A DNA stretch of 64,000 nt from a virus, in IMG/VR virus record IMGVR_UViG_3300029955_000024. One strand, 5' to 3'. The notes under the pieces are model-generated. The model had not been told where the DNA came from and searched no databases. It saw nothing but the letters and a program-made list of their open reading frames with translations. Every line of letters starts with the position of its first letter. The first letter of the stretch is position 1. Position numbers and translations under genes: made by a program. Positions 1,359 through 44,500 of this stretch are shown in pieces.

Positions 1359-1435
1359 TGGTAGCTCCTCCTAGGGTCGAACTAGGCTATGCGGCTTATG
1401 AGACCGCCACTTTACCTACCATAAGTTAAAGAGCC
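1359..1435 (-). tRNA. tRNA with anticodon CAT (Met or Ile2/lysidine type), 77 nt, CCA encoded
   Basis: Hand-folded on the reverse complement. Acceptor GGCTCTT/AGGAGCT with two GU pairs; D-stem ACTT/AAGT; anticodon stem GCGGT/GCCGC with loop CTCATAA; T-arm CCTAG-TTCGACC-CTAGG; discriminator A + CCA. Confidence 0.7.
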
Positions 1436-1679: not shown

Positions 1680-2168
1680 TTAAGCGCGTAAACTTGCTTC
1701 CAAGAAATAGAGGAACTTTTCTAATCCTCTTACTAACCCAATATATACGTCTTGGGTTATTAGATCCCCATTCTCACTGGAGACTTTCATACCTTTCCTC
1801 ATTGCATTGGAAATGTCACTGATATAATCTGACATCTTTTCTATGTGGGTTCTACAATTGTCATCATAGATACCAGCGTAAGTAAAACCTTGACTATTGT
1901 TTGTAACCATCCAAGGTTTACCTTCTGGTACACCACCTAGAGCTGTTATTCGCTCGGCGATAGTATCGCTAGCATCTGCCATATAATCATAGATTTGATC
2001 AAATAGTAGATGTGTAGGATGAAATCCATCCCCTTTCACATTCCAGTGTGCAAATTTTATATCCATTTGTGCCAGCATGGTATTAGCAAGATTCACGTTT
2101 AGATTGTCGACGATTACCTTGATCTTATCTTCTGGCACGTCAATGCGCGTCGTATACAATTCACTCAT
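1680..2168 (-). CDS. dps: Dps-family DNA-protection/ferritin-like protein
   Basis: 162 aa. 'FAHWNVKGDGFHPTHLLFDQ...DTIAERITALGGVPEG' and 'DKFLYFLEASL' align to E. coli Dps ('AHWNMRGANFIAVHEMLD...DTMAERAVQLGGVALG', 'DKFLWFIESNIE'). Ferroxidase-centre His/His/Asp/Glu positions conserved. Confidence 0.85.
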   Translation of the reverse strand: MSELYTTRIDVPEDKIKVIVDNLNVNLANTMLAQMDIKFAHWNVKGDGFHPTHLLFDQIYDYMADASDTIAERITALGGVPEGKPWMVTNNSQGFTYAGIYDDNCRTHIEKMSDYISDISNAMRKGMKVSSENGDLITQDVYIGLVRGLEKFLYFLEASLRA

Positions 2169-2619: not shown

Positions 2620-2694
2620 TGGTCGGCTCGGCTGGTGTCGAACCAGCGACCTAACCATTATGAGCGGTTGGCTCTACCGTTGAGCTACGAGCCG
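2620..2694 (-). tRNA. tRNA with anticodon CAT (Met or Ile2), 75 nt, CCA encoded
   Basis: Reverse complement folds canonically. Acceptor CGGCTCG/CGAGCCG; D-stem GCTC/GAGC; anticodon stem AACCG/TGGTT with loop CTCATAA; variable AGGTC; T-arm GCTGG-TTCGACA-CCAGC; discriminator A + CCA. Confidence 0.8.
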
Positions 2695-6458: not shown

Positions 6459-7115
6459 TTACATATTCTTCAGCAAATCTTCTGCGGCTGCCGTTGTCTC
6501 AGGATCTTCAGATGTAGTGACAGCTCCCATGGCACGGTTCAACTTCTCTGTGGCTATATCATTCTGTGCTCGCATGCGCCCTTCAACATCATCGACAGAG
6601 ATATCTGCCCCACTGCCTACTAATCTACCCGCGTGCTCAAGAGCAGTTGCTGCATGAGTTTGAGCCTTCGAGGACTGATTTAGTGCCTCAAGTTCACGAA
6701 CTTTGCTCAACATCTCTGCATGCTTACTGGTAATATTGGCGACTGAAATGTCCATCTTGTTCGATGTTTCCGTCTCTGAAATCAACAAAGCCTGCTTGTT
6801 GGTTACTTCATTCTGTAACCGAACAATTTCCTTTGCTTTTTCCAAAGCCTGATCAGGATGCCCGTTGTTTTTCAGCTTCGTTGCTGTAATTCTGGAGGTC
6901 TCGATTTTTGCATTGAGATCGTCGATCTCACGCTTTGTCGTGTGAACTGTAGCTGCTGCTACCGCTGCTTCTCCACGTAGCTGGTCAAGAGCCTCTTCCA
7001 GATCCCTTACATACTGCCGAAGAGCAGATGGACTGTTAAGATCGATCACTTTGTCAAGTAGATCATGGGTCTCACCAAGTCCAATCGTTCTGAGCTTGCT
7101 AAAAATTCCTGTCAT
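6459..7115 (-). CDS. pspA: PspA/IM30/Vipp1-family protein (phage shock protein A homolog)
   Basis: From internal Met: 'MTGIFSKLRTIGLGETHDLLDKVIDLNSPSALRQYVRDLEEAL...' parallels E. coli PspA '[40 protein letters not shown]', then long coiled-coil. ATG at 7113-7115 sits 17 nt after the TPM gene stop. The upstream 75 codons of the ORF are the TPM gene's Gly/Ser tail read in another frame. Confidence 0.85.
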   Translation of the reverse strand: MTGIFSKLRTIGLGETHDLLDKVIDLNSPSALRQYVRDLEEALDQLRGEAAVAAATVHTTKREIDDLNAKIETSRITATKLKNNGHPDQALEKAKEIVRLQNEVTNKQALLISETETSNKMDISVANITSKHAEMLSKVRELEALNQSSKAQTHAATALEHAGRLVGSGADISVDDVEGRMRAQNDIATEKLNRAMGAVTTSEDPETTAAAEDLLKNM

Positions 7116-7131
7116 TGCCTTTCCCTTCTTC

Positions 7132-8472
7132 TTAGAAATCGCTACTACCACCGCCGCCGCTGTCGGAACTGCTGCTACTGTCAAAGCTGCTACTCCCGCC
7201 GCTGTCAAAGCTAGAACTGGAATCAGAACTACCCCAACTGGATGAGCCACCAGACTCGCTTTCACGATCTGGTTCTGGATCTGGAGCTCTGTACGTTGAT
7301 TCTTCTCGTCTTGGTTCTTCGCGACGAATCTCTTCCACACGTGGTCGATTGTTTATAGATTCGCCGATGAGAACACCAGTCAATAAATCATTGTTGGGAG
7401 TTGATGTCGGTGTTGGTTCATAAGTCGGTCTTTGTTCTATGTTATGGTGCTGGTGATGATGCCTAACTTGGTTGTATCCAGTGGTATCATTTACATCGGC
7501 AGTGTCAATGGGGGGTCCTTGTTCAGCCGGCTGTTCCGTTGCCATTGGGCTCTGTACATATTTGTGTGCTGAACGTAGAGACTCGAACTTATCGATGAGG
7601 ATTCGATATTCTTTGGTAATGGCTTGATAACCATCTTCTGTCATACTTTGTTTGGGGTCCATCGAGTCTGAGTTCTCCATATTGGAAAACTCTTCCATAT
7701 ACGTATCAAACATATCTTGAATGGATTTCTCTGGTGGATCACTCTGGAACGCTGATTTGAGGGTAAGAACTAGCGCAATACATTGATTCTTTGTAACTTG
7801 AGCTAACCTCTTCGCTTTTGCTTTGGCATCTCTTATTTCTGCCCAACGGGTGCAAGCGATATACCCTGCGGCAATAATGAAGATTAAGAACCCCAATCCA
7901 AGACACCATAGTAGTACAGTCCATAAACCTTTATAGTCCGTTGCTTGGACATTGGTTGTGTTCTGGACTGGGTGTAGAGCTTCATCTTTGGAAGCCGCTA
8001 ATCGAAGTGAGAATTGTTCGATACCAGTAGACATGCCAAGTGCATAGTTACCGTCTTTGAATCTTGGGATCATATAGGACGTCATGATCCGGTTCCAATT
8101 TCCGTCTAGTGCGGAATGCCAAGCGGAACCATACATTATTCCTACTTTATGATTCCCGGCTAACATAAAAACAATGAGTGTACTTTTACGTCCACCGCTG
8201 CCACTTTCCCAAGAGGCACATTGGTTCTCCATCTGTTTTTCTGTGATATCGAGGTTGGTGCTATACCCGACTGTCCTTATTCGGACATCAGCGCCTTGTT
8301 GAACCAACCTGTTCGCAGCGGTTTCTACTGTTGTAATACCTTTTCCAAACAGATTTGCTTGGTCAATGACAATGTTGTCACACAATAGAGATTGAGCCAT
8401 GACCCAACCTGACGTTGAAAACACCATCATCATAACCAACAACGTATACATTGTCAGCTTTGAACTTTTCAT
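7132..8472 (-). CDS. TPM-domain (TLP18.3/Psb32/MOLO-1, YgcG-like) membrane protein
   Basis: Signal peptide (MKSSKLTMYTLLVMMMVFSTSGWVMA). TPM motifs 'VIDQANLF', 'LIVFMLAGNHKVGIMYGSAWHS', 'IPRFKDGNYALGMSTGIEQ'. One TM helix, then Gly/Ser-rich C-tail typical of YgcG. GGAGGTGGAG RBS before ATG at 8472. Confidence 0.8.
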   Translation of the reverse strand: MKSSKLTMYTLLVMMMVFSTSGWVMAQSLLCDNIVIDQANLFGKGITTVETAANRLVQQGADVRIRTVGYSTNLDITEKQMENQCASWESGSGGRKSTLIVFMLAGNHKVGIMYGSAWHSALDGNWNRIMTSYMIPRFKDGNYALGMSTGIEQFSLRLAASKDEALHPVQNTTNVQATDYKGLWTVLLWCLGLGFLIFIIAAGYIACTRWAEIRDAKAKAKRLAQVTKNQCIALVLTLKSAFQSDPPEKSIQDMFDTYMEEFSNMENSDSMDPKQSMTEDGYQAITKEYRILIDKFESLRSAHKYVQSPMATEQPAEQGPPIDTADVNDTTGYNQVRHHHQHHNIEQRPTYEPTPTSTPNNDLLTGVLIGESINNRPRVEEIRREEPRREESTYRAPDPEPDRESESGGSSSWGSSDSSSSFDSGGSSSFDSSSSSDSGGGGSSDF

Positions 8473-8524
8473 ACACTCCACCTCCAAGTGGATCGGGAGG
8501 GTTGTTACACCCTCCCTTTACTAG

Positions 8525-9232: not shown

Positions 9233-9457
9233 TTAACGACTTGCTAAAGACTGTTCTCGTCTAATTTTCGCCCAAGCAACATATGCCGCCACGGCTTGTG
9301 TAGAAATACTAAATGCCTTACCAATATTTGTACAAGTATACCCCTTCTTGTGCAAATCTACCATCGTCTTCTTGTCTGTATTACTGATGGTCACTTTCTT
9401 GGTAGGCTTTTTGTTACCTAACTTCTTTGTGCTCATTATTTCCTCGTTACGCACCAT
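9233..9457 (-). CDS. small HTH DNA-binding protein
   Basis: 74 aa; 'GYTCTNIGKAFSISTQAVAAYVAWAKIRR' helix-turn-helix-like. Confidence 0.45.
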   Translation of the reverse strand: MVRNEEIMSTKKLGNKKPTKKVTISNTDKKTMVDLHKKGYTCTNIGKAFSISTQAVAAYVAWAKIRREQSLASR

Positions 9458-9918
9458 CCAAATGTATGCATGGTGTAAATACCACTCTTGTAAGAGAAGT
9501 TTATATCTTCTCCGAGATTGGTTAGTTCATAGCCACCGCATATGGCTAATCCTTTTACAACTAGATTTATCTCATCTCGCGAGAATTTCGGGTTGTAATA
9601 CCTATCGGAACCCATTGATGCCATAGTGCGGTCGGCAACTGTCATAAACAGCAGGGCTTCGTCAGATAATCTACGTCTATTAAATAGTAGTGTTAAATCC
9701 TCTACTATTTTCATACAAAAGTGACAGCAAAAGTCTAGATTAGCACCGTTAAACACTGTATCTGTTGTACGTATAAATTCGTTAAAACTTATCGGCTTGT
9801 CTGGTAGAACAGCGGAAAGATGATGAATATTTCTCTTCTTTTCCTCTAATCCACTCGATCTATTCTCGACGATGTGGACTCGTCCAAACAAGAGGGCGAC
9901 TTCGTCATAGTCGGACAT
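9436..9918 (-). CDS. hypothetical protein (start uncertain; overlaps upstream gene)
   Basis: 214-aa ORF 9436..10080 shares 235 nt with 9846..10625 in another frame. Internal ATG at 9918 chosen; a frameshift or fusion is possible. Confidence 0.3.
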   Translation of the reverse strand: MSDYDEVALLFGRVHIVENRSSGLEEKKRNIHHLSAVLPDKPISFNEFIRTTDTVFNGANLDFCCHFCMKIVEDLTLLFNRRRLSDEALLFMTVADRTMASMGSDRYYNPKFSRDEINLVVKGLAICGGYELTNLGEDINFSYKSGIYTMHTFGWCVTRK

Positions 9919-10625
9919 GTCGTCTGCTGCGAACCAGATATATTCACCTCTAGCAGACGATCGAAGAGCGGAGATATATCTAAGCCATCCAATTCTCGAA
10001 CGCCTTTTTCCGTCAGTATCGAGCTGCTCTCGTTGAGAACGCGTGCGCCGAAGACTACGTTCTCGAATATCGAGATCCATATCGCTCTTGCCTCCATTAA
10101 CTTTGGTTTAAGTTCTTTATGTAAAGACAAGAGTTTGTCTATTGAAACGTTCAGTTCTTTATCACCCTCTGGATGCTTCACCTTCTCGTTGTATTGATGA
10201 ACGTTAAGACCTAACAATGAGATTTCCTCACATAACTGATTATGTATGACATATCTCTTTTCTTTCTTGTCTTTGTTTGTTGTAAGTTTCTTACTCCCCG
10301 GGGTAACCAAGCGGAATTTCTTTCCCCGCTTCTCAATCTTGAACCCAGTTGGTATAGTTGGAATGAACCCTTCGTCAATACATATTCTCACGGCAGAGCG
10401 AATGGCACTAACACAAGCTTTGATAGTAGCCGCGCTCAAATGATTTGGGTCCCCAGTTCCTACTCTACAAGTGTTTGTGAATAAATCACAAGCCTTATCG
10501 AGCTCTGCTACGGAGAAATCAAAGCACTCTTTAGCATGGTTTTTAACCATATCAAGTTGAGCTTTGCTTTTTGGTTTCTTCCCAACTATATATTTATACA
10601 CATCAGCTAGTGTCTGCTCAGCCAT
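9846..10625 (-). CDS. hypothetical protein (259 aa)
   Basis: Clean ORF; no family recognised. Confidence 0.45.
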   Translation of the reverse strand: MAEQTLADVYKYIVGKKPKSKAQLDMVKNHAKECFDFSVAELDKACDLFTNTCRVGTGDPNHLSAATIKACVSAIRSAVRICIDEGFIPTIPTGFKIEKRGKKFRLVTPGSKKLTTNKDKKEKRYVIHNQLCEEISLLGLNVHQYNEKVKHPEGDKELNVSIDKLLSLHKELKPKLMEARAIWISIFENVVFGARVLNESSSILTEKGVRELDGLDISPLFDRLLEVNISGSQQTTCPTMTKSPSCLDESTSSRIDRVD

Positions 10626-10636
10626 ATGGACCTTCC

Positions 10637-12148
10637 TTACACGTCTTTTAGGACGGTGAATGAATCCTTTCGTTTCCTTCTATGACAATTTGTACACATT
10701 ATGAACTCTTTTGTATCATTTTTACAATTGTATTCTTCCCTGATAGTGGTTTTTACCATTCCATGAGGATAATTTATCTCATTACTGTTTTTATCCTTCA
10801 TCCTAACCCCAGTAGTGAACATCATAGTTCCTTTACATTTGGGGCACTTTGCTGCTATACGGATAACCTTGGATTGGTCGGAGAAGAATCCAGTTTTCAG
10901 AAGTCTATTGACATGTTTATACCAAACTTCACAGATTGCTTTCTTAATTGAATCTTTACCATAACTAGGGTTCTCTAGTTGATAGTCAAAAGCACGCTCC
11001 AACATTCTTTTATATTCATTACTGGGGGTGAATCCCCACTCGGTGAGATCGTCGCCAGTAACCAATGGTTTGGGGAATCCAAGAGTCTTAGCAGCAGTTA
11101 TATACCCTATGGTATTCTCCATATTTATAGAGATGATCTTAGCATTAACTAGAATCCATAGTAATTCTATAGCTCTGTTTATATTTGGCTTGTTGGCAAG
11201 CTTCCTTCTTTCACATAGTGAAGTAAGCCTATTAGACCTAAGATCAATTACTATTTGCACCATCTCTGAGATTGTATTTCTGTCTTCGTTAGAGAATTTG
11301 AGATATTTTAATACATCCCCAATATTCCAATATATACCAGTTGTATACAAAAGACAACACCATGCTAAGATTGGATCTTTAACTTGTCCAATCTTGTCGA
11401 AATTGACAGTTTGATCTACTATATTAAAAAGGGAATTTGGTTGTTGCTCATAGATTTTGGTGTATAAATTAGTTCTCTGAAGACAGAACAAAGCGTCACC
11501 GACGTGTTCCCCCGTTATGAGCTTTGTCATTTCGTCTCTAACACGTTCTCGCGAAACCCTAATCATCAAATTTGCATTATTACGAATTGCTCGTAATGTC
11601 TCAAATTCTATCTGAAACCCAAGTTGTGACACGAATCTAACAGCTCTTAACATTCGAAGAGGATCCTCTTGGAAACGAATGTTAGGGTCACCAATACAAC
11701 CAATCCTTCGTATTGATATATCATATTTACCACCAACATAATCAATAACTTCCATTGACTCTGGGTTCATCAATATCCCATTCATCCTAAAATCTCTACG
11801 ACCAGCGTCAATACATTCTTGATCAGTAAATATAACACTATCCGGTCTACGAAGGTCTGAATACTCAGTAGAATCACTTCTCAATGTAGCTACTTCTATG
11901 GAGTGATCTACACCATCTATATCAACAAGGACTTTTACAACTCCGAATTCTACTCCAATTGGAATATTGTGGGGAAATAGATCCATTACTTCATTGGGTT
12001 TAGCTGAAGTACATATATCAAAGTCTTTCGGTTCCTTGTTCATAAGAAGGTTTCTAACACACCTACCTACAAGGAAGACTTTGAAGTTATTTTGCTTTAA
12101 CGTCTTAGCTACTTTCCTAGCAGCTTCTAAACTACTTATCTCTGGCAT
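10637..12148 (-). CDS. cca: CCA-adding tRNA nucleotidyltransferase / poly(A) polymerase family, with C-terminal Zn-ribbon extension
   Basis: Head-domain motifs 'GRCVRNLLMNKEPKDFDI' (GGxVRDxLL..DxD), 'RRDFRMNGILMNP' (RRDFTIN), 'EDPLRMLRAVRF'. C-terminal CPKCKG...CTNCH. ATG at 12148 with AAGGA RBS; the track's 12163 start is TTG. Confidence 0.85.
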   Translation of the reverse strand: MPEISSLEAARKVAKTLKQNNFKVFLVGRCVRNLLMNKEPKDFDICTSAKPNEVMDLFPHNIPIGVEFGVVKVLVDIDGVDHSIEVATLRSDSTEYSDLRRPDSVIFTDQECIDAGRRDFRMNGILMNPESMEVIDYVGGKYDISIRRIGCIGDPNIRFQEDPLRMLRAVRFVSQLGFQIEFETLRAIRNNANLMIRVSRERVRDEMTKLITGEHVGDALFCLQRTNLYTKIYEQQPNSLFNIVDQTVNFDKIGQVKDPILAWCCLLYTTGIYWNIGDVLKYLKFSNEDRNTISEMVQIVIDLRSNRLTSLCERRKLANKPNINRAIELLWILVNAKIISINMENTIGYITAAKTLGFPKPLVTGDDLTEWGFTPSNEYKRMLERAFDYQLENPSYGKDSIKKAICEVWYKHVNRLLKTGFFSDQSKVIRIAAKCPKCKGTMMFTTGVRMKDKNSNEINYPHGMVKTTIREEYNCKNDTKEFIMCTNCHRRKRKDSFTVLKDV

Positions 12149-12273
12149 ATATTCCTTGTTCAATCTTATCCCAAGTACTCAGGACTAAAAGGGGGTAGTG
12201 TAAGTTATAAAGTAGTAAAGTACACTACCCTTCGTATTTGTCTACTTCTGACCACCAAACCATCATGGCTTGT

Positions 12274-13191
12274 CTACTTGTTTGGAATTCCAATCAGAAA
12301 GTTTCCACCCTTGTCACCACCGGATAGATACTCTGGCATACGACCATCCCAACGCCAAATAGCAGCATTCTGGTTATCCAGTGCTCTCATATTTAAGATG
12401 TTTGGTGTGATTGAAGCGTTCCTGATTCTATTGGCTTCCGCTTCACCAGTAGCCTTGGTAATCTGTGCCTTAGCTTCACCCTCAGACTGAGCAACTAGTT
12501 TAGCTGCATCAGCTTGCACCTGAATAAGCTCAATCTGCTTCTTCTGTGCAACTTGATTTGCCTGTGCCTTATTGTTGATAGCATCGATTACTGATTGAGG
12601 TGGCCTTGGTGCTCCGATGAACCCGAACTGAGTAAGCTCAGCTCCATACTCTAATACTTGGCTTTGAACGCATTTCTTGGTTTCTTCAATGAAAACTGCG
12701 TTATCACCCATAACTTGTTCGATGCCATACTTGCCGGCATGTTCATTGAAGCAGTCTCTTGCTATGTTTCTAAGGAACCCGTGAGTGAATTTCGTATCAA
12801 TTTCTTTTTCGTCGTGTGCCAAGAACTTTACATAGAAGTATGGAACTTTCTCTGCATGTAGGAAATAACTCAATGAGATATCAGCACCAATTACCATTGA
12901 ATCTTTGTTGGTAAAGGTGATACTCTCGTCGATTGGCTTGCCCTCGTTGGGGCTTGCAGTCCATTTCGCTGTCTGCATGGAGGTTGGGTATTCATACACA
13001 CTCTCGGTAATTGGGTTATAAAACACCCAGCCAGTACGAACAGGGGTATCCGTTACCCCTTTGCTTGAACCTGCCATGTTTACAACAATTCCGACATGTC
13101 CCGGTCCAACTGACGTCCAGCCACAACCGGTTAGGAGACAAGCGGATAAGATAGTAACAATCAAGCTAAGATTCGCTGTGTTTAGTTTCAT
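12274..13191 (-). CDS. SPFH/band-7 (stomatin/prohibitin-like, YqiK/QmcA-type) lipoprotein
   Basis: Signal + lipobox LLTGC. 'VGPGHVGIVVNMAGSSKGV', coiled-coil 'AQANQVAQKKQIELIQVQADAAKLVAQSEGEAKAQ' and 'AEANRIRNASITPNILNMRALDNQNAAIWRWDGRMPEYLSGG' match the SPFH C-terminal region. AAGGAG RBS before ATG 13191. Confidence 0.8.
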   Translation of the reverse strand: MKLNTANLSLIVTILSACLLTGCGWTSVGPGHVGIVVNMAGSSKGVTDTPVRTGWVFYNPITESVYEYPTSMQTAKWTASPNEGKPIDESITFTNKDSMVIGADISLSYFLHAEKVPYFYVKFLAHDEKEIDTKFTHGFLRNIARDCFNEHAGKYGIEQVMGDNAVFIEETKKCVQSQVLEYGAELTQFGFIGAPRPPQSVIDAINNKAQANQVAQKKQIELIQVQADAAKLVAQSEGEAKAQITKATGEAEANRIRNASITPNILNMRALDNQNAAIWRWDGRMPEYLSGGDKGGNFLIGIPNK

Positions 13192-13441
13192 TTTCGTTCT
13201 CCTTGTGATACTGAAGTTGTAGGTAATGATATGTTTCTCCAAACAATTTATAACTCCAAGAACTTGCGTACTTCCAACTGATGAACAAACTAATCAATAC
13301 AACAAACAGCCCAAAGAAAGCCAATAGAGTACTGGGAGCGGATAAGGCAACAAACCCCCAATTCATGACATATAACCCAGCGCATGTTACAACTACAATC
13401 TTGAGAGATTGTATAAGGAAGTGCCACCAGAATCTATTCAT
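13166..13441 (-). CDS. small 2-TM membrane protein, possible NfeD/YqiJ-like partner of the SPFH protein
   Basis: 91 aa, two hydrophobic helices, sits immediately upstream of the SPFH gene and overlaps it by 26 nt. Confidence 0.35.
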   Translation of the reverse strand: MNRFWWHFLIQSLKIVVVTCAGLYVMNWGFVALSAPSTLLAFFGLFVVLISLFISWKYASSWSYKLFGETYHYLQLQYHKENENETKHSES

Positions 13442-13525: not shown

Positions 13526-14053
13526 TTAAAAGTCTTCGTCAACACAACGCACGGGAATGACTCTTACTCCTTCTCTTCTCCACATATCAACAACCCGTTT
13601 ACGATCCTCAATGGCGAACAGAATTTGATCTTTTCCTCTTGGTAATGAGTTAACTAACTCATTCAGAATTTCCTTTTTTACTACGTCGCCTGGTCTCTTA
13701 TCCCCTTCCCAACAGAAGAATATCCAAGAGAAAGGAATGTCATATTTTCTTAACCACTCTACGGACAGATCCCCTGTTGTGAAAGAAGGGCGGCCAGATA
13801 TGATGACGATACTACAATCTTGAGAGATTGTCCGTACCCAAGAAGCTATAATGTCCACTGGAAGGTCATTACACGCTTCTATGTGAAATTGTTTGAAGTT
13901 TTTAGGATGAGATTTAACGTAGTGTAGTCTATGACTACAGTCTGACAGTGTTCCGTCTAGATCAACAATCACTACTGGTTTTTCTCCCCATTCTATCTTG
14001 TTCTCCAGTAATAACACTCTGGACTTTTCAACACTGTTACGACATGGTTTCAT
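13526..14053 (-). CDS. HAD-family polynucleotide 3'-phosphatase, T4 Pnkp phosphatase-domain-like (no kinase domain)
   Basis: 'VVIVDLDGTL' DxDGT motif. C-terminal 'DVVKKEIL...FAIEDRKRVVDMWRREGVRVIPV' matches remembered T4 Pnkp 'DVVKEEIF...[22 protein letters not shown]'. No P-loop. Confidence 0.6.
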   Translation of the reverse strand: MKPCRNSVEKSRVLLLENKIEWGEKPVVIVDLDGTLSDCSHRLHYVKSHPKNFKQFHIEACNDLPVDIIASWVRTISQDCSIVIISGRPSFTTGDLSVEWLRKYDIPFSWIFFCWEGDKRPGDVVKKEILNELVNSLPRGKDQILFAIEDRKRVVDMWRREGVRVIPVRCVDEDF

Positions 14054-14242: not shown

Positions 14243-14554
14243 CTAGCTACCGTACGGTCTTAGATCTGTTTTGGGAGGTATTGGTGGCGTTAACTTTCTG
14301 CTCCAACTTATTTCGTCTTCTGCGTAGTTGATCAAATATGCCAGTCCAAACAAGGAAGCTACTAAAGCTAGCTTGTTTAGTTTGAGGATTAACAGCACGA
14401 TAGCAATTGGAAAGAATCCCCATTGCAGGGTATAACCCATCCAATTCTTCCGTCTTGGCATGCGAATCTCCTTACCTTCCATTACAATCCCAACCCGTGG
14501 GGATATGTGTGGGCGAATTGTTACCACAACAGCCTTTGTTTTAACTACTGCCAT
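14243..14554 (-). CDS. hypothetical membrane protein (103 aa)
   Basis: ORF with one central hydrophobic helix. Confidence 0.4.
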   Translation of the reverse strand: MAVVKTKAVVVTIRPHISPRVGIVMEGKEIRMPRRKNWMGYTLQWGFFPIAIVLLILKLNKLALVASLFGLAYLINYAEDEISWSRKLTPPIPPKTDLRPYGS

Positions 14555-17322: not shown

Positions 17323-18576
17323 TCATTTTAAGATACCTTTGAAGGACTCAACTGACATTCTGTCCTCGAACCTTGGTCCAAACGAGATTGTGTTGATAGT
17401 CGGTTCCAACAAATTCTTTAGAACAGACAAGTAAGTGCTTAGACTCGGGGGTTGTATAAACAAACCCTTCTCTGAGTCGATTATCTTCAGATAGTCTGTC
17501 CACCTGTCCAAATGGGACAAAGCTATTTCATCTACGCCTTTACAAATCTTAATGGACTTATTGACAAGCCCAATGTCCAAGTGTCCCACCCGAAACTCCC
17601 CTTGATACTCGCCTTTCTGGTTATGATTTTCTGGCAGTAAACCAGTTAATCTCATATCCTCGGTTGGGAATGGACCCACTCCGTGACGAGTGGCGTAGGT
17701 TCTTATACAGCCAATTCTGACTCTGTTACCAATGAACCCAGAAATGTTGAGCAAATCATCAGCATTCCTGAAAGTTGTGTTGGTCCATGAGTTATACGGA
17801 TAGGTCCCATACCACTCATCTAACATTACTCCTTGTGCCCCCTCGAACACAGATGCAGTGGATTTTGATAGCAAATCAGAAAGGAACTCTTGTGGCTTTA
17901 CCTGAGCGTTCCATTTGCTATATATCCGACTGTGCCATTCAGACCAGTCTTCATTACTATCTACTATGATGTCGTAGTCCTTTTTCCACTGGTCCACTGG
18001 TATCTTTTCCAATGTCGGAAGCAGCTCTTTCAGCTTGGCGAGGTACACCTTGTGAAGGAAGCTCAATTTGCTACGTGTTACCTCTTCTGATTCTATGTCT
18101 TTAGCAAATAGGACGTTGTTCCCATATTCAATGGAATCACTACGAGTTTGTCCTATTCCTTGTCCACAGCTACCGTGTCTGTTCTTCCCTCTGGCAATTT
18201 CTCTCAACCTTCCAAAAGCTATTTGGAAGGGAGTGACTACCAAGCAATCCCCATCAACAAATGTTCTGTCCCATATATCAGTTATCCCAAGGGACATTAG
18301 ATGAGCTGCTTCTCTCATCATGTAGAATGGATTGACCAATGTAAACTTGGACAAGTAAGTCTTCACATTGGGTTGTAGCATCCCACTACCAAACTGTTGG
18401 AAGGTATGGCTTCTCGATAATTCAACAACGTTATGTGCAGCTTGTGGCCCACCGTTGTATCGAACTATCAAATCAGCTTTGTGAGTACGGGTTAGATACT
18501 CTACGTGGGCTCCTTTTGCGCAATCGCCCCATAGCATCCCAGCAACGAGATATGCTATACCCATTAGTACCTCCAT
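17323..18576 (-). CDS. adenylosuccinate synthetase family protein (divergent PurA/PurZ-like)
   Basis: 'WGDCAKGAHV' (P-loop GDEGKGK), 'GGPQAAHN', 'GSCGQGIGQTR', 'FEGAQGVMLDEWYGTYPY', 'TRHGVGPFPTE' parallel PurA motifs. The TGRRRR region is diverged. Confidence 0.75.
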   Translation of the reverse strand: MEVLMGIAYLVAGMLWGDCAKGAHVEYLTRTHKADLIVRYNGGPQAAHNVVELSRSHTFQQFGSGMLQPNVKTYLSKFTLVNPFYMMREAAHLMSLGITDIWDRTFVDGDCLVVTPFQIAFGRLREIARGKNRHGSCGQGIGQTRSDSIEYGNNVLFAKDIESEEVTRSKLSFLHKVYLAKLKELLPTLEKIPVDQWKKDYDIIVDSNEDWSEWHSRIYSKWNAQVKPQEFLSDLLSKSTASVFEGAQGVMLDEWYGTYPYNSWTNTTFRNADDLLNISGFIGNRVRIGCIRTYATRHGVGPFPTEDMRLTGLLPENHNQKGEYQGEFRVGHLDIGLVNKSIKICKGVDEIALSHLDRWTDYLKIIDSEKGLFIQPPSLSTYLSVLKNLLEPTINTISFGPRFEDRMSVESFKGILK

Positions 18577-21815: not shown

Positions 21816-23462
21816 TTAGCTCGCCCTGTGCCACCCCTTGGCAGATTTCAGGGCAAAAAGAATGTTCTTAGCTTCTGCTGAGTCTCCTCCAGCCAAACTT
21901 TCAGTGTACATTAACATTGCAGCTTCAGTGTTTCCCTTGTCTGGGTGAAAATCAAGGAATACACCAGCCCTTGGGACTTGTCTATCAGTTAGATTCTGGG
22001 CTTTTATCTTTGCCACCGCTCCAATTAGTTGGTCTCTGTGGTCCCAGATCCACTGTCTCTTCTCATCAGTAATACTGAAGCTACCAATTTCTCCCCTAGC
22101 CCCGTTAGCAGGGTTCTCAACAACCATCCTGCCAACGGAACCTGAGTACTTACCTGATCCTTCAAGGATCTCCACAACAGGTAGATCAAAAGGATCCGTG
22201 TTCTTTACTTTGAACCAATTACCCTCGCCGACTTTACTATCAACAGACTTGGCGACAATTCCTTCACCATATGGCATTGGTTGAGCAATAACCATATCGT
22301 AGAACTCTTCTGGTGACTGGTATCGCCCTTTCTCAGCACTCACGTACCAGTGCTTGTTGAAAATCCTAACTTCGGCAATGGTATCCTTAAGTAGCGCACG
22401 CCGCTCTCCGTATGGCAACTTTGATACGTCCCTACCACGGTACTTGAGAATATCCCAAGCAACAAAGGTGGCCTCACCACGGAGCGCCTGAATTTGGCGA
22501 GCCTTTTCCGGATAAGCATTTAGGATCCCTCCTATTCTCCCAGGGCCATCGGGATGGACTAATTCACCTCTTACAAGGGATCCACGTAAATTTGGACCTC
22601 TGAACAACTTTCTGGAAGACCACAAATTTGATGTGTTACTTATATGCTCCAACTGTGGAAGCCTGTCGTAATATGTCTCCCCTTCTTCTCTATGGCTTCT
22701 AAAGGTAGCATAGTTGTCCATGATGAGTACGTTAGAAAGTGAACCATCATACTTCTGTTCAAATACGTACTCATCTGGGTTGACGGTTTTTAGCCAGTTT
22801 CTCAGCTTCGTTCTGTAAGCTGGTTTTGGTATTACCATGCCTTCGTCTTTCATCGGGACTATAAGCTTTCCCTTCGGAGTGGTCACAAAGGCATAGCGCC
22901 CCTTGAATTCGCCAGATGGTATGTTAAGTTCCCACTGCTCTGTTCCAGGAGGTACCCCCTCAACGACAAGGTCGTAATGCAAGCCAGCTCTGATTGCATT
23001 ATGAGAGTGGTAATTAATTTTGGCGGGAAAGGTCCTTTCACCAATCTTAACAATACCGACCTTAGAAAGAAGCAGTGTTTTAATTCCTTTACCGTAACCT
23101 TCCTCGATTTCCCCAGAGAAGTCTGTGATAAAGTGCGGATCATTCTCGATCGCAAGCGCACGCTTGCCACTGATCGGTAAACCCTTCGGAATCGCGTACT
23201 TGGCAAACGCCGGATTAGGCGTGAATTCATTAAGGGTAGCTCCATCTACTGACCTCGTAGGATACCATCTAGAAGTGTACAATCTAGAACGGGGATACTT
23301 AGGTAACAACATAGCATGAAGATTGTTTTGAACTCTTGGCTGTATAACAGAACCAAAAGTATCAAGTCCGATGTCTAATCCAGTCCTGAGTAGGGCTTTC
23401 GATATCGTTTTTACCCATCTCCAAACTTTGCTTTTCATGTTGTCACTCCCGGTATTTTCCAC
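21816..23462 (-). CDS. ATP-dependent polynucleotide ligase (DNA/RNA ligase nucleotidyltransferase superfamily)
   Basis: Motif I 'KYDGSL', motif IV 'EGIVAK', motif V 'WFKVK', motif III-like 'FVAWDIL'. No Arg after motif I Gly (present in many DNA ligases). Confidence 0.75.
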   Translation of the reverse strand: MENTGSDNMKSKVWRWVKTISKALLRTGLDIGLDTFGSVIQPRVQNNLHAMLLPKYPRSRLYTSRWYPTRSVDGATLNEFTPNPAFAKYAIPKGLPISGKRALAIENDPHFITDFSGEIEEGYGKGIKTLLLSKVGIVKIGERTFPAKINYHSHNAIRAGLHYDLVVEGVPPGTEQWELNIPSGEFKGRYAFVTTPKGKLIVPMKDEGMVIPKPAYRTKLRNWLKTVNPDEYVFEQKYDGSLSNVLIMDNYATFRSHREEGETYYDRLPQLEHISNTSNLWSSRKLFRGPNLRGSLVRGELVHPDGPGRIGGILNAYPEKARQIQALRGEATFVAWDILKYRGRDVSKLPYGERRALLKDTIAEVRIFNKHWYVSAEKGRYQSPEEFYDMVIAQPMPYGEGIVAKSVDSKVGEGNWFKVKNTDPFDLPVVEILEGSGKYSGSVGRMVVENPANGARGEIGSFSITDEKRQWIWDHRDQLIGAVAKIKAQNLTDRQVPRAGVFLDFHPDKGNTEAAMLMYTESLAGGDSAEAKNILFALKSAKGWHRAS

Positions 23463-41553: not shown

Positions 41554-44500
41554 TTATCCCACCTCATCAGGATTAGGTTCTTCGAATGCCTCATAATTCT
41601 TCTGAGGCAACAAAGACTCGTGTGATTCTCTCAGAATCACCATTCCATCTTCCATTGTGAAGCCACCGAACTCTATCCCCTCGTCCTCTAGCCTTACAGG
41701 GATAGTTCCAATAGCTTCCATAGTGCTTAACCGATACACAATACCAGCCTCCTTGATCACAACATCAACCTTAGCTTCGCCAAGGTCATAAGCAAACTCC
41801 TCGTCCAAATCCACTGGTACTACAAGCCCAGTTATTGGACGCAGCTTACGAGTCTTGATATCCATATACTTGATATCCCGACTCGCCTGAATAATCGCAT
41901 TACCCATGCGCTTAGTCCACAACATACCATCTGGGAAGCTCTTTCGCTTCCCCATCTCCTCTCCCTCAACAACATACTGAGCATCTGCGTAGATGGTGTG
42001 ATACAGATAGCAGAGCAGCTCTACAGCCATCTGCTTAACAGTGTCATCATCAAACTGTGCCAGATACTCAGCACAATCATTCTCTACCTTCTTATACGCT
42101 TCGTTAAGACCCTCTCTGGTCATTGGATTACCAGCGCCAAGGATAGCTTTCCAGCCACCTCTCCACACCTGTATATAACCAGGCGCATCTTCACGCTTCC
42201 GACCGGGATTGGAACCGAGATAGACAGCGATGTCCGGGCTATGCCCACCCATCTCAAACACAAATGCTTCATCGGCAGGAGCTACTGATATCCACTCACG
42301 CAGCTTCAGACGATCTATCAACACATCACGTTTATGTGTTAAGTCTTTCAGACTCTTACACATAAGCGAGTCATAAATGTGATAATCAGCCTTAGCTACC
42401 TTAGTGGTGGGGATTCTAAGGGTATCCTTCCCACTAATACGCTTACCCATAGTAGCAATATATGGATAGATCAGAGTCCCTTCCAATCCAATGTTCTCAA
42501 CAGGTTCTCTACCTTCCTGTAAGCCACTATGGAACTGACGTACAGCATCGCTAACGTTACCAAGTTGAACCAAGATGTTTGCATCCAGAACAACGCCATC
42601 AATGACATGTTCCAGATTAGTTTCAAACTTCCTCATCTGATAAAGAGGTCTCATCACAAACCACTCACGGGTTGCTTCGAGGTCAGCAATCTTAGCAAGG
42701 TTACCAAACCTCTTAGCTTCAGCGATTTCAGCATCGAGCTGTTCAAACATATATGCCCGATCCGCTGCATTGGACAACCTATTGTCAATCATATTTGCAT
42801 TAACAACAGGTCCAATTCCAGCACCGCTCCTCTGCTTCCTATCAATCTGATAAGCAAAGTGCCGATTGTTATACCATTCCTTCACGCCGCGACCGGGGAT
42901 TTTATAACCTTCAGCTTCTGCTTCTTCATCAAACTGACGACGAAGCACAGCTCCTGACTTCTTGATCTTAGCAGTTTCTGGATACGGGTTATCGTTCAAT
43001 TCCTTGAACTTGTTAACCCAGAATTCATCAAATACTACGATGAAGCGATCATCCAGATCACCACCACCTAATCTGGCTAACACTTTGTTACAGCCAGCGC
43101 CGAGAATGATAATACCTTTCCCAGCGAACCTAGCATAACGCTGATGGTGGATATTCTTGAGAATCACGAATGCATTCTGATTCTCATTTGGTTGTCTATA
43201 ACAGGCAACCAAAATACCAGCAGGGATGTCCATCATACAGCACTCATCTTTACCAATGAGCTCATCCTCAATTGGTAACAGATTCCCTTCCGTATCATGC
43301 ATATACGGGTCATGGATACAATATCCACTAACAGCTACCTTATCCAATGGGATACGTCCACGCTCCATTTGCATGACACGATACATCATGAAGTTGTTAA
43401 CCCTACGACCCAATCCCGGGTACTTAAGAGCAGACCATCCATTGATGACCGCTTCTCTCAGCACCCAAGCATCCCAATCAATCATTGAGATCCCATCATT
43501 GTAGTAATGCTCATCATCACGTACACTGTTGATATACTTAACCAACAGCTTCGTGATTTCCTTGTTATCCATCGTCTTGTTCCAATAATCCAGACGGAAC
43601 AGCTGAGCTTGATAATCAATCATGCCCGGACGCTCAAAGCGGAAGTTATCCCAGCTTTGCATATCACTGAACGGCATGATCTTCTTCAGCTTACCAAAAC
43701 AGCCGAAGTAGAACCGCTCATTCTTAATCATAGTCTTGGACCCATACACTACGAAGTCATACTCCAAATCCTCCTTATAGACGAAGTTACCCTTCGGCAT
43801 ACCTACATACCTCTCACCAATAGTGCACTGCCATGCATCTCCAATACGTGGATGCTTGCTAAGTCCAACAGACTTTGCACCATGTTCTCCTACCAAGCCG
43901 CCACCATCCAACCGAGCAGCGTCATCATCTGTCAGTCCATCGATGCTATTAAACTTCACGGTAATGATGGCACCGTTATCCAAACGATACACACCAATAC
44001 CAGCGACAACATCGAACTTAACCGGTTTACCTAACGCATGCACCCAAGTTGGTGCCATCTCACGGTTTAAATACTTACCCGCTTTCAGGCATTTCTCCAA
44101 ATCATTGAGCTCAATCCAGATCCCAACACTTCTCAAATCCACTAAATTTGTCATGGCATCAGGAACGAGATAAGCAGTAGCCCTGTCATCTCTCTGATAA
44201 CCAAACAAACACTTATAGTGGATTCCCTCGTATTGATACCCACTGTTCATAACTCGCTCTGCTACCGCAGAGTCATCAGTTACAAACTCTATGTAGGTAC
44301 AGTCTAATGCGTCTTCCAACAGCCATGGAACTTCCGCATACGGCCCATAAGCTCTGAAGAACTTAGGATCATCGTCAAGTTTTGACCCAAACTTAACTTT
44401 ATTACGACGATGAGCCTCTGTATACGGAGTCCGAGTAACAAGCTTCTTGTTACTCTTCATCCATTCAACAACAGCGATCTTCTTTACTCCTCCATCATCC

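Follow-up and report, generated by a model that had tools for sequence, protein, structure and literature searches.

The locus and its setting

The window analysed here, a 64-kb stretch of DNA, belongs to a tailed phage with a genome of approximately 215 kb, which is represented by the contigs k141_2073559 (ENA ERZ27250126) and k141_4752672 (ENA ERZ27249030). It carries a 175-aa HAD phosphatase whose ORF spans exactly 13526..14053 on the minus strand, the strand having been left unstated in the first-pass annotation (Table 1). In all 10 metagenomic contigs that were retrieved, each from a different sample, the gene is nucleotide-identical and called as 175 aa, and no near-identical DNA was found among GenBank phages. 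GTG starts at codons 13 and 28 were considered and rejected, the latter lying two residues before the DxD and the metagenomic gene calls all being ATG. The protein is laid out as a low-confidence N-terminal extension (residues 1-24) and a phosphatase domain (residues ~27-167). A promoter and terminator scan around the gene gave counts near the shuffled expectation and no useful signal, and an 11-mer search found no recurring motif in the intergenic region upstream of it.

Table 1. Features of the phosphatase gene and of its surroundings in the window
Feature	Position	Strand	Basis or remark
Gene for the 175-aa stand-alone Pnkp-type HAD (DxDxT) phosphatase	13526..14053	-	ATG-initiated ORF
Motif I, DLDGT (residues 31-35); D31 predicted phospho-acceptor nucleophile (T4 Asp165), D33 predicted general acid/base (T4 Asp167)	13949..13963	-	T4 alignment
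Motif II, S86-G87-R88 (T4 Ser211-Gly212-Arg213)	13790..13798	-	Alignments
Cys114, at the T4 Arg246 position	13712..13714	-	Alignments
Gly122, at the T4 Asp254 position	13688..13690	-	Alignments; Asp comes next at residue 123
String DVVKKEIL (residues 123-130)	13664..13687	-	
Motif III, Lys126 (T4 Lys258)	13676..13678	-	Invariant in all relatives
String AIEDRKRVVDMWRREGVRV (residues 147-165)	13559..13615	-	
Motif IV, E149-D150-R151 (T4 Asp277-Asp278-Arg279); D150 predicted Mg2+ ligand	13601..13609	-	Alignments
Class II CCA-adding enzyme, 503-508 aa, without HD domain, with C-terminal CxxC...CxxC extension	10637..12163	-	Pfam PolyA_pol + PolyA_pol_RNAbd + tRNA_NucTran2_2
ATP-dependent DNA ligase, ~8 kb from the phosphatase, same strand	21816..23462	-	DNA_ligase_A_M + DNA_ligase_OB_2
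tRNA-Met, 3' CCA encoded	1359..1435	-	
tRNA-Met, 3' CCA encoded	2620..2694	-	

The phosphatase gene is directly flanked by genes for small membrane proteins and for an SPFH/Band 7 lipoprotein, with no nucleic-acid enzymes among them. At a distance of 1.4 kb is the gene for the CCA-adding enzyme, in the same orientation, which weighs little because the genes from approximately 1.7 to 47.8 kb all share one strand. Its product falls in the PHROG group of tRNA nucleotidyltransferases, scores 242 bits against the NCBIfam CCA model and has the bacterial CCA-adding enzymes 6ibp and 1miv as its best PDB matches; it has no Pfam HD match and fits NF008137 by its head domain only, the HD phosphohydrolase domain of E. 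coli Cca being absent. No match to this enzyme was found in IMG/VR, hence there are no close relatives for synteny. The differing gene calls downstream of it, of 259 and 214 aa, do not reflect sequence variation and proved to be two overlapping ORFs in identical DNA. The phage has five tRNA genes, every one with its own encoded CCA, and for that reason the CCA-adding enzyme is more likely to serve repair. A Ro60/TROVE gene lies 4-6 kb past the window edge; a search for a Y RNA near it produced no Rfam match, either at the gathering threshold or with E<=1. The RNA-related setting of the phosphatase, made up of the CCA-adding enzyme, the five tRNA genes and Ro60/TROVE, is real.

The ligase of the window, which had been counted as part of an RNA toolkit, matches DNA-ligase models only: it is an 'ATP-dependent DNA ligase' in PHROG, its PDB and NCBIfam matches are DNA ligases without exception, and the Pfam RNA_ligase model, with a cutoff of 27 bits, scores no more than 22. 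At 3.3 kb from the phosphatase there is a divergent PurA-like gene. Its PHROG label suggested PurZ and a Z-genome, but a canonical PurZ was rejected: the best PDB match is a bacterial PurA, and among the NCBIfam models those for PurA score 147 bits, whereas the one for PurZ (cutoff 300) reaches 28 bits.

Family assignment

All the sequence strings quoted in the first-pass annotation for a HAD protein with a DxDGT motif and a T4 Pnkp-like C-terminal block were found in the translation, and profile, PDB and fold comparisons agree with its reading. The protein matches Pfam PF25109 (HAD_PNKP) with 71.4 bits (E=1.1e-19; curated cutoff 27.6 bits) over profile positions 3-139 of 143, as well as PHROG 415 (E=2.9e-29) and PHROG 505 (E=7.7e-25). 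By phmmer against the PDB, the best match is Pnkp1 (4xrp, E=7.7e-9), followed by the T4 Pnkp phosphatase domain (5uj0, E=1.6e-7) and by full-length T4 Pnkp (1ltq), whose residues 157-293 align with E=3.5e-7, so that the T4 sequence block on which the annotation drew was essentially right. The AF2 model has a pLDDT of 89.1 and a pTM of 0.85, with a confident core and residues 1-9 below 50. When it was compared with the PDB by Foldseek, the top 13 matches were all Pnkp1 or T4 Pnkp (Pnkp1 best, E=6.3e-10), and the next ones, lipin/Pah and class B/C acid phosphatases, had E-values about two to four orders weaker than most of these 13; the TM-score, normalised to the isolated T4 phosphatase domain 5uj0, is 0.82. 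Pfam also gives a second, weak match, with the NT5C 5'-nucleotidase family (E=0.0057), which stays under the cutoff of that family. Judged by sequence, the likeness to T4 Pnkp goes far beyond chance, and, with the predicted fold, it places the protein among the T4 Pnkp-type DxDxT HAD phosphatases ahead of every other HAD family. An unrelated HAD subfamily, the possibility against which the annotation had to be checked, is thus not what the profile, sequence and fold comparisons returned.

With the phosphatase domain of T4 Pnkp/PseT (residues ~148-301; 1ltq, 2ia5, 5uj0) the window protein has in common PF25109, the fold, the DxDxT nucleophile/acid pair, the Ser/Lys phosphate contacts and the Asp Mg2+ ligand; its C-terminal block (DVVK.EI ... 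AI[DE]DR..VV.MWRR.GV) also closely resembles that of T4. It differs in the absence of the N-terminal P-loop kinase domain, in an extra 24-residue N-terminal extension of predicted low order, in the lack of an adjacent RNA ligase, in Cys for Arg246 and Gly for Asp254, and in overall sequence, the identity being approximately 26-27%. The same HAD phosphatase module is found in Pnkp1 of the Pnkp1-Rnl-Hen1 complex of Capnocytophaga gingivalis (4xrp, 4xru), a bacterial RNA repair complex (PMC4411300), but there the module is fused to a kinase, and the fusion protein works in a heterohexamer alongside an RNA ligase and Hen1, none of which was found near the window gene.

Catalytic residues and two unusual substitutions

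In T4 Pnkp, Asp165 is the nucleophile and Asp167 the general acid/base, Ser211 contacts the phosphate, Lys258 stabilises the transition state and Asp278 is a Mg2+ ligand (PMC3592404); all the catalytic residues named in that work are kept in the window phosphatase, as D31, D33, S86, K126 and D150, and the T4 R246 and D254 positions are conserved family features that lie outside the catalytic motifs it names. The Asp pair of motif I is invariant in 62/62, 201/202 and 145/147 relatives in three alignments, and Glu occupies the first acidic position of motif IV in 58 of 202 relatives. The family-specific set of Arg and Asp residues (T4 R176, D187, R213 and R279) is also kept, as R42, D63, R88 and R151. 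At the T4 Arg246 position, Arg is present in all 200 other relatives, and a second set has 145 Arg and one Lys; Cys is found there in the window copy alone among approximately 345 relatives. The T4 Asp254 position is Asp in 195/202 and 143/147 relatives, with Gly in less than 3% of the approximately 345. No sub-clade with the Cys114/Gly122 pair was found among these relatives, and the nearest one, at 47% identity, keeps Arg and Asp at both positions. Arg246 of T4 helps bind the penultimate phosphodiester of a polynucleotide and reportedly helps hold the substrate backbone, and Asp254 is said to be essential in T4, the D254A mutant being inactive. Because Cys114 and Gly122 sit at the positions with these roles, the activity or the polynucleotide specificity of the window enzyme may be lowered.

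Kinase-less copies among phages

As the first-pass annotation had it, the phosphatase lacks a P-loop kinase domain, with no Walker-A string anywhere in the protein. No Pnkp-type kinase was found elsewhere in the window with a profile derived from 19 fused relatives, using their kinase halves (best E=1.7, filters off), nor with the same profile in the two flanks (~17 kb); the only two Walker-A strings in the window are both spurious, one of them near the terminase C-terminus. Families of RNA ligase, RtcB, Hen1 and Tpt1 are likewise missing from the window ORFs of at least 90 aa and from the flank genes. For a separate 5'-kinase, and for the RNA ligases Rnl1, Rnl2 and RtcB, the search of the window and flanks was thus negative over approximately 81 kb of the ~215-kb genome.

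The kinase-less state had been regarded as noteworthy, an impression that the survey of relatives corrects. Of the 80 nearest viral relatives 71 are stand-alone copies, as are 74 of the 146 best cluster representatives and about 100 of 120 database matches, which makes stand-alone copies at least as common as fused ones. With 1,854 phage records matching the window phosphatase and 5,826 HAD_PNKP cluster representatives, the kinase-less Pnkp-type phosphatase is an abundant class of phage gene, of which the window gene is an ordinary member. A literature search found no biochemical characterisation or activity data for any stand-alone member.

The gene neighbourhoods of these relatives are mostly made of DNA and nucleotide-metabolism genes. 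The commonest neighbour of the stand-alone copies is the thymidylate synthase ThyX (16/71 loci), with dUTPase and dNMP kinase also seen, and a DnaQ-like exonuclease is frequent (10/71). In two phages of 138-149 kb the homologue lies between DnaB and a DnaG zinc-ribbon, with RecA, a Mre11-like Metallophos protein, an SbcC-like ATPase and PolA adjacent; a T7-like Klebsiella phage has it flanked by a metallophosphoesterase and a dNMP kinase, close to endonuclease VII, an exonuclease and DNA polymerase, and another homologue adjoins a PD-(D/E)XK protein. A separate Pnkp-type kinase ORF occurs within 10 kb of 12 of the 71 stand-alone viral relatives, and a Rnl1-type RNA ligase is among the four nearest genes in 6/71. 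A CCA-adding enzyme is near the phosphatase in one of 80 related viral loci, and a homologue of the window DNA ligase within 10 kb in none of the 80; the pairing of phosphatase and CCA-adding enzyme is no general feature of the family.

Possible function and alternatives

For the activity, substrate and partner enzymes of the phosphatase we infer, by homology and from its gene context, a stand-alone Mg2+-dependent 3'-phosphoesterase of the T4 Pnkp/Pnkp1 (DxDxT, HAD) family. In such an enzyme Asp31 would attack the 3'-phosphate (or 2',3'-cyclic phosphate) at the terminus of a nucleic acid to form an aspartyl-phosphate intermediate, with Asp33 as general acid/base, the transition state would be stabilised by Ser86, by Lys126 and by a Mg2+ ion whose ligands are Asp31, Asp150 and the carbonyl of Asp33, and hydrolysis would then free the phosphate and leave a 3'-OH end. 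Because it would work without a fused kinase, only the 3' side of a break would be healed. The likeliest users of the 3'-OH would be the neighbouring CCA-adding enzyme, which would restore damaged 3' ends of tRNAs, or else the DNA ligase or polymerase of the phage. Given its placement by profile, PDB and fold, its conserved catalytic residues, the local RNA context and the fact that the isolated T4 phosphatase domain has been solved as a stand-alone structure (5uj0), we consider it on balance probable that the protein is catalytically active and works as a polynucleotide 3'-phosphatase with no kinase dedicated to it. That RNA or tRNA ends specifically are its substrate is a good deal more doubtful. 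T4 Pnkp strips 3'-phosphates from RNA as well as DNA and opens 2',3'-cyclic phosphates (PMC3592404), and a review of jumbo phages counts PKN-HAD phosphatases, CCA-adding enzymes and ROT/TROVE proteins as parts of phage RNA repair (PMC7824862). Against the 3'-phosphatase reading, the tRNA role included, stand the Cys114/Gly122 pair, the immediate neighbours that do not act on nucleic acids, the single related locus with a CCA-adding enzyme and the DNA and nucleotide-metabolism flanks of the relatives. The end-healing toolkit for RNA and tRNA proposed at first thus survives in part: the CCA-adding enzyme, the tRNA genes and Ro60/TROVE fit it, while the ligase is of the DNA type and the CCA pairing is confined to one of 80 loci.

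The classical role of such an enzyme would be a counter-measure against tRNA restriction, in which the phosphatase heals the cyclic-phosphate end of an anticodon-cleaved tRNA, the opposite end is treated by a separate 5'-kinase, and the break is sealed by an RNA ligase encoded elsewhere, which is just what T4 Pnkp does with Rnl1 (PMC3592404). Split arrangements of this kind are known from the relatives with a separate kinase (12/71) or a Rnl1-type ligase (6/71) close by, jumbo phages often combine RNA ligases, kinases, HAD phosphatases, CCA-adding enzymes and TROVE proteins (PMC7824862), and approximately 134 kb of this genome lie outside the searched part. However, the 5'-kinase and the RNA ligase that a defence against host anticodon nucleases requires are both absent from the ~81 kb covered, the best kinase-profile match in the window has E=1.7 and the two Walker-A strings there are spurious, RtcB, Hen1 and Tpt1 are missing as well and the sole ligase is a DNA ligase, and we regard this proposal of the first-pass annotation as unlikely. 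Somewhat less so, though still rather improbable, is a role in cleaning DNA 3' ends, where blocking 3'-phosphates would be removed from phage DNA, or from recycled host DNA, for a polymerase or the ATP-dependent DNA ligase. It is favoured by the homologues amid DnaB, DnaG, RecA and PolA genes in the two 138-149-kb phages, by the Klebsiella phage copy near endonuclease VII, exonuclease and DNA polymerase, by the neighbouring PD-(D/E)XK and DnaQ-like proteins at other loci, by the co-oriented DNA ligase gene at a distance of 8 kb and by the hydrolysis of DNA 3'-phosphates by T4 Pnkp in vitro (PMC3592404); yet the window gene does not lie within a replication module, close to membrane proteins and the CCA-adding enzyme, and the ligase homologue accompanies the phosphatase in 0/80 loci.

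The substrate might also be mononucleotides (e.g., 3'-(d)NMPs released by nucleases) or some other small phosphoester instead of polynucleotide ends. The ThyX, dUTPase and dNMP kinase genes around the relatives, the PurA-like gene at 3.3 kb, the sub-threshold NT5C match and the loss of Arg at the position with a polynucleotide-binding role in T4 would all suit a nucleotide-pool phosphatase, but the ThyX association holds at the family level and may stem from a few over-sampled lineages, Arg151 (T4 Arg279), Arg42 and Arg88 are kept, and both sequence and fold are clearly nearest to polynucleotide phosphatases, which makes this role quite unlikely. Least probable of all, in our estimation, is a relic that is catalytically weakened or inactive, crippled by the two substitutions at near-invariant positions. 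Cys114 is unique and Gly122 rare among the relatives, the pair defines no sub-clade, the closest sequence is 47% identical and D254A of T4 is reportedly inactive; nevertheless, the ORF is intact, the residues directly involved in the chemistry are all conserved, the AF2 model is confident across the core, the gene is unchanged on all ten contigs from different samples and Asp123 might stand in for the missing Asp.

A narrower form of the 3'-phosphatase reading, in which the phosphatase and the HD-less CCA-adding enzyme would act together in tRNA 3'-end repair independent of kinase and ligase, is speculative, and we give it a low probability. Once a nuclease had trimmed the acceptor end, the phosphatase would remove the 3'- or 2',3'-cyclic phosphate remaining there, and the tail would then be restored by the CCA-adding enzyme; since the phage tRNA genes already encode CCA, the two proteins would serve repair exclusively, possibly together with the Ro60 orthologue, and the unique Cys114/Gly122 combination could be a substrate site retuned for the tRNA acceptor end. 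The HD domain of the E. coli CCA protein is reported to act both as a 2',3'-cyclic phosphodiesterase and as a phosphatase, which could allow it to unblock the 3' ends of tRNAs ahead of CCA repair. The comparison is one of functional analogy only: a phosphatase beside an HD-less CCA-adding enzyme would follow the same two-step logic, as suggested by proximity, but HD and HAD proteins are related neither in fold nor in chemistry, and the two steps would here belong to separate proteins. If true, the two enzymes would provide a simple route for the repair of tRNA acceptor ends during infection.

The main result is the correct annotation of a kinase-less Pnkp-type phosphatase, and the survey adds that stand-alone copies are at least as frequent as fused ones, with an RNA ligase or kinase adjacent in only about one in ten; given these frequencies, the role of the stand-alone proteins is probably not simply that of T4 Pnkp. 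The window phosphatase's own group is that of the single-domain phage HAD_PNKP proteins of PHROG 415 (~140-215 aa), with examples in Klebsiella phage K59PH2 (CAK1256776.1) and Phaeobacter phage MD18 (QJA43112.1), from which it differs by an identity of at most 47%, by its unique Cys114/Gly122 pair and by its gene neighbourhood. The proteins of PHROG 415 are often annotated as 'polynucleotide kinase' or 'HAD-superfamily hydrolase', and for stand-alone HAD_PNKP proteins the first of these labels is a routine error.

Identity of the phosphatase and its active site

The phosphatase ORF matches exactly, on the minus strand, the position at which the first-pass annotation had placed it, every motif quoted there was found (see table), and the proposal of a phosphatase lacking a P-loop kinase domain is upheld by the absence of a Walker-A string from its 175 residues. 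Its likeness to the phosphatase of T4 Pnkp was also borne out by three independent lines. Pfam PF25109 (HAD_PNKP) matched over almost the entire model (E=1.1e-19, 71.4 bits, cutoff 27.6). Two PHROG families labelled 'polynucleotide kinase' also matched, 415 (E=2.9e-29) and 505 (E=7.7e-25), the latter through the C-terminal half of its 295-position profile, i.e., the phosphatase half of full-length Pnkp. The top PDB sequence match was Pnkp1 (4xrp, 7.7e-9), followed by the phosphatase domain of T4 Pnkp solved on its own (5uj0, 1.6e-7) and by residues 157-293 of T4 Pnkp (1ltq, 3.5e-7). The first 13 fold matches of the AlphaFold2 model (pLDDT 89.1, pTM 0.85) were all Pnkp1 or T4 Pnkp (TM 0.82 normalised to 5uj0), followed by lipin/Pah and class B/C acid phosphatases with E-values about 2-4 orders weaker than most of the 13. 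Because profiles, PDB sequences and fold agree, the protein is a T4 Pnkp-type HAD phosphatase and not a member of an unrelated HAD subfamily.

Residues were placed in T4 numbering by HMMER alignment, and their roles taken from the literature: D31 corresponds to the nucleophile Asp165, D33 to the general acid/base Asp167, S86 and K126 to the phosphate contacts Ser211 and Lys258, and D150 to the Mg2+ ligand Asp278 (PMC3592404). Together with the conserved family residues R42, D63, R88 and R151 (T4 Arg176, Asp187, Arg213 and Arg279), these are invariant or nearly so across three overlapping sets of 62, 202 and 147 relatives. E149 replaces T4 Asp277, a position where Glu is common (58/202 relatives) and where the T4 mutant D277E is fully active. 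Two other positions depart from the family. Cys114 occupies the position of T4 Arg246, which is Arg in 200/200 other relatives and, among 146 further cluster representatives, Arg in 145 and Lys in one; Gly122 occupies that of T4 Asp254, which is Asp in 195/202 relatives and in 143/147 of the set of cluster representatives. The nearest homologue retains 'MR...RPDD' across this region, and no sub-clade with the Cys114 and Gly122 pair was found among the relatives compared. In T4 Pnkp, Asp254 is essential and architectural, and Arg246 and Arg279 hold a sulfate in the place of the substrate's penultimate phosphodiester, which fits the title of PDB 2ia5, 'with bound sulfate and magnesium'. With the core residues conserved and the Arg246 and Asp254 positions changed, the chemistry-bearing residues are intact, and the substrate grip or activity of this copy may be altered.

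Kinase-less copies and their gene context

The family is widespread, with relatives in 1,854 of 50,697 GenBank phage records (tblastn); an exhaustive search of cluster representatives gave 5,826 matches with a limit of E<=1e-3 and 1,535 with one of E<=1e-10. The kinase-less architecture is not unusual: among the best 120 word-indexed matches about 100 were single-domain proteins (128-238 aa) and about 20 carried an AAA_33 kinase domain, the best 146 cluster representatives comprised 74 of <=210 aa and 71 with a kinase domain, and the nearest 80 IMG/VR loci held 71 stand-alone and nine fused copies. In only 12 of those 71 did another ORF, no more than 10 kb away, encode a Pnkp-type kinase. The window protein thus has the commonest phage architecture of a known family (PF25109/PHROG 415). 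Some fused relatives (~305-318 aa) carry the HAD phosphatase N-terminally and the kinase C-terminally, the opposite of the domain order of T4 Pnkp.

The classical arrangement is seen in Gordonia phage Bantam, with a fused Pnkp and an RNA ligase 4 kb upstream. Stand-alone copies have other surroundings. Two phages of 138-149 kb carry one between DnaB and the DnaG zinc-ribbon, with RecA, PolA, a Mre11-like Metallophos protein and an SbcC-like ATPase nearby. In a T7-like Klebsiella phage the copy is flanked by a metallophosphoesterase and a dNMP kinase; others lie beside a PD-(D/E)XK protein and, with Rad52 and SSB, in the early region of a temperate phage. Among 263 genes that flank the 71 stand-alone viral copies, Pfam identified, in raw counts that may include redundant lineages, ThyX thymidylate synthase (16), short-chain dehydrogenase (12), RNase_T exonuclease (10), AAA_33 kinase (7), DUF6378 (7) and Rnl1-type RNA ligase (6). 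The window's CCA enzyme had a homologue within 10 kb of the phosphatase in only 1/80 loci, where the Pnkp is fused.

Candidate partners for RNA repair

The first-pass annotation had joined the phosphatase, a ligase and a CCA enzyme into an RNA/tRNA end-healing toolkit, of which the CCA enzyme stands and the ligase falls. The former (10637-12163) is indeed a CCA-adding enzyme, of class II and lacking an HD domain. The latter matched DNA_ligase_A_M and DNA_ligase_OB_2 in Pfam, with RNA_ligase under cutoff, bears the PHROG label 'ATP-dependent DNA ligase', and had exclusively DNA ligases as PDB and NCBIfam matches. Pfam searches of every window ORF of at least 90 aa found no RNA ligase, RtcB, Hen1, Tpt1 or nucleic-acid kinase; a profile search for a Pnkp-type kinase domain in the window, filters off, found nothing (best E=1.7); and the same RNA-repair and kinase families were absent from the flanks (8.6 kb past the high end, 7.4 kb past the low end). 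The suggested search for a separate 5'-kinase therefore found none in ~81 kb of a ~215-kb genome.

All five tRNA genes found encode the 3'-terminal CCA despite the phage-borne CCA-adding enzyme, which more plausibly serves repair than maturation for that reason. The C-terminal extension of this enzyme (~100 residues, 10637-10960, minus strand) has two CxxC pairs (KCPKCKG ... CTNCHRRKRK), looks like a zinc ribbon and falls outside the enzyme's alignment with its best matches of solved structure, which are bacterial CCA enzymes. A Ro60/Rsr orthologue stands between the tRNA-Asn, tRNA-Val and tRNA-Trp genes. Upstream of it is a gene-free 1-kb gap (L101 15157-16157), a conceivable place for a Y-RNA-like partner, in which an Rfam search gave no match.

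Features of the window, its low-end flank and fused relatives (positions in the window unless a contig or protein is named; L101, contig of this phage reaching beyond window position 1; other L-handles, retrieved viral loci; P-handles, cluster representatives)
Feature	Position	Strand	Remarks
Phosphatase ORF	13526..14053	-	ATG start, 175 aa
DLDGT	phosphatase residues 31-35
DVVKKEIL	phosphatase residues 123-130
AIEDRKRVVDMWRREGVRV	phosphatase residues 147-165
ATP-dependent DNA ligase	21816-23462		Pfam, PHROG, PDB, NCBIfam
Phage tRNA genes	1359-1435; 2620-2694	-
tRNA-Asn, tRNA-Val, tRNA-Trp	L101 14813-14889, 18149-18223, 18605-18678		low-end flank
Ro60/Rsr orthologue	L101 16158-17858		TROVE + vWA_Ro60, 566 aa; ~4-5.7 kb beyond window position 1
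Ferritin-like protein	1680-2168	-	162 aa
PspA/IM30	6459-7340	-
TPM-domain protein	7132-8487	-
SPFH/Band 7 protein	12274-13242	-	N-terminus resembles lipoprotein signal (LLTGC)
Small hydrophobic ORFs	13166-13441; 14243-14554
Adenylosuccinate-synthetase-like gene	17323-18576	-	divergent, 417 aa; 3.3 kb from phosphatase
Terminase large subunit	55851-57878	+
Portal	60292-62592	+
HAD-first fused relatives	L029 849-1805; L030 9614-10570; L090 9452-10408; L093 9992-10942; also P0164, P0192, P0199, P0211

Probable function

We lean towards an active polynucleotide 3'-phosphatase that acts without a kinase of its own. Such an enzyme would be a Mg2+-dependent 3'-phosphoesterase with Asp31 as phospho-acceptor, and its reaction would leave 3'-OH ends with no need of a fused kinase. 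The Cys114 and Gly122 changes could also be those of an inactive relic, which is improbable beside the retained catalytic core. A full T4-like pathway of kinase and RNA ligase, with its partners encoded elsewhere in the genome, is unlikely, neither partner having been found in the ~81 kb searched.

As to the substrate of an active 3'-phosphatase, a specific action on RNA or tRNA ends is a tentative proposal. The local context (CCA repair enzyme, tRNAs and Ro60) favours RNA and fits the jumbo-phage RNA-repair repertoire, already published, that combines HAD phosphatases, CCA-adding enzymes and TROVE proteins (PMC7824862). Across the family as a whole, the neighbourhoods speak more for DNA or nucleotide metabolism; of these, the cleaning of DNA ends, as the DnaB and RecA neighbourhoods would suggest, is somewhat doubtful, and a role in the nucleotide pool, for which the ThyX and dNMP kinase neighbours may speak, is decidedly unlikely. 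Equally unlikely is that the phosphatase and the CCA enzyme, as a pair and with no kinase, would repair the acceptor ends of tRNAs. The idea of the RNA-repair combination is not new; what sets this locus apart is that the 81 kb searched held neither a kinase nor an RNA ligase, that an HD-less CCA enzyme lies nearby, and that the Cys114/Gly122 pair is unique.

The phage and the surrounding genes

The terminase and portal genes mark a tailed phage. Two contigs of 215.4-215.5 kb have different end points, which suggests that the genome is complete at about 215 kb and circularly permuted. The samples share a nearly clonal population: three contigs from independent samples (L001, L100 and L101) share 99.97-100% identity with the window over 12-20 kb, and the phosphatase gene is nucleotide-identical, and called as 175 aa, on 10/10 retrieved contigs from ten different samples.

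Metabolic, tRNA and small genes occupy the minus strand from 1.7 to 47.8 kb, and the metallophosphoesterase, terminase and portal genes the plus strand from 48.7 to 64 kb; the sign of the GC skew also reverses at this strand switch (~47.8-48.7 kb). Genes of membrane or envelope-stress type (6459-8487 and 12274-13441, minus strand) surround those of the CCA enzyme and phosphatase. The adenylosuccinate-synthetase-like product carries a PurZ-type PHROG family label, yet its best PDB match is a bacterial PurA, and NCBIfam gave 147 bits to PurA models vs 28 to PurZ, all below curated cutoffs. Its P-loop reads WGDCAKGA, the canonical PurA P-loop being GDEGKGK. It probably does not mark a Z-genome and is an unusual relative of PurA. 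The 1,261-aa ORF at 41554-45339 (minus strand) had no Pfam, PHROGs or NCBIfam match, and the minus-strand ORFs of 2.1-34.6 kb include two DprA-like (DNA_processg_A) proteins and one DUF4326 protein. At 9436-10625 (minus strand), overlapping ORFs of 259 and 214 aa in different frames, neither with a family match, are called alternately by contig on identical DNA, and their difference is a gene-calling ambiguity.
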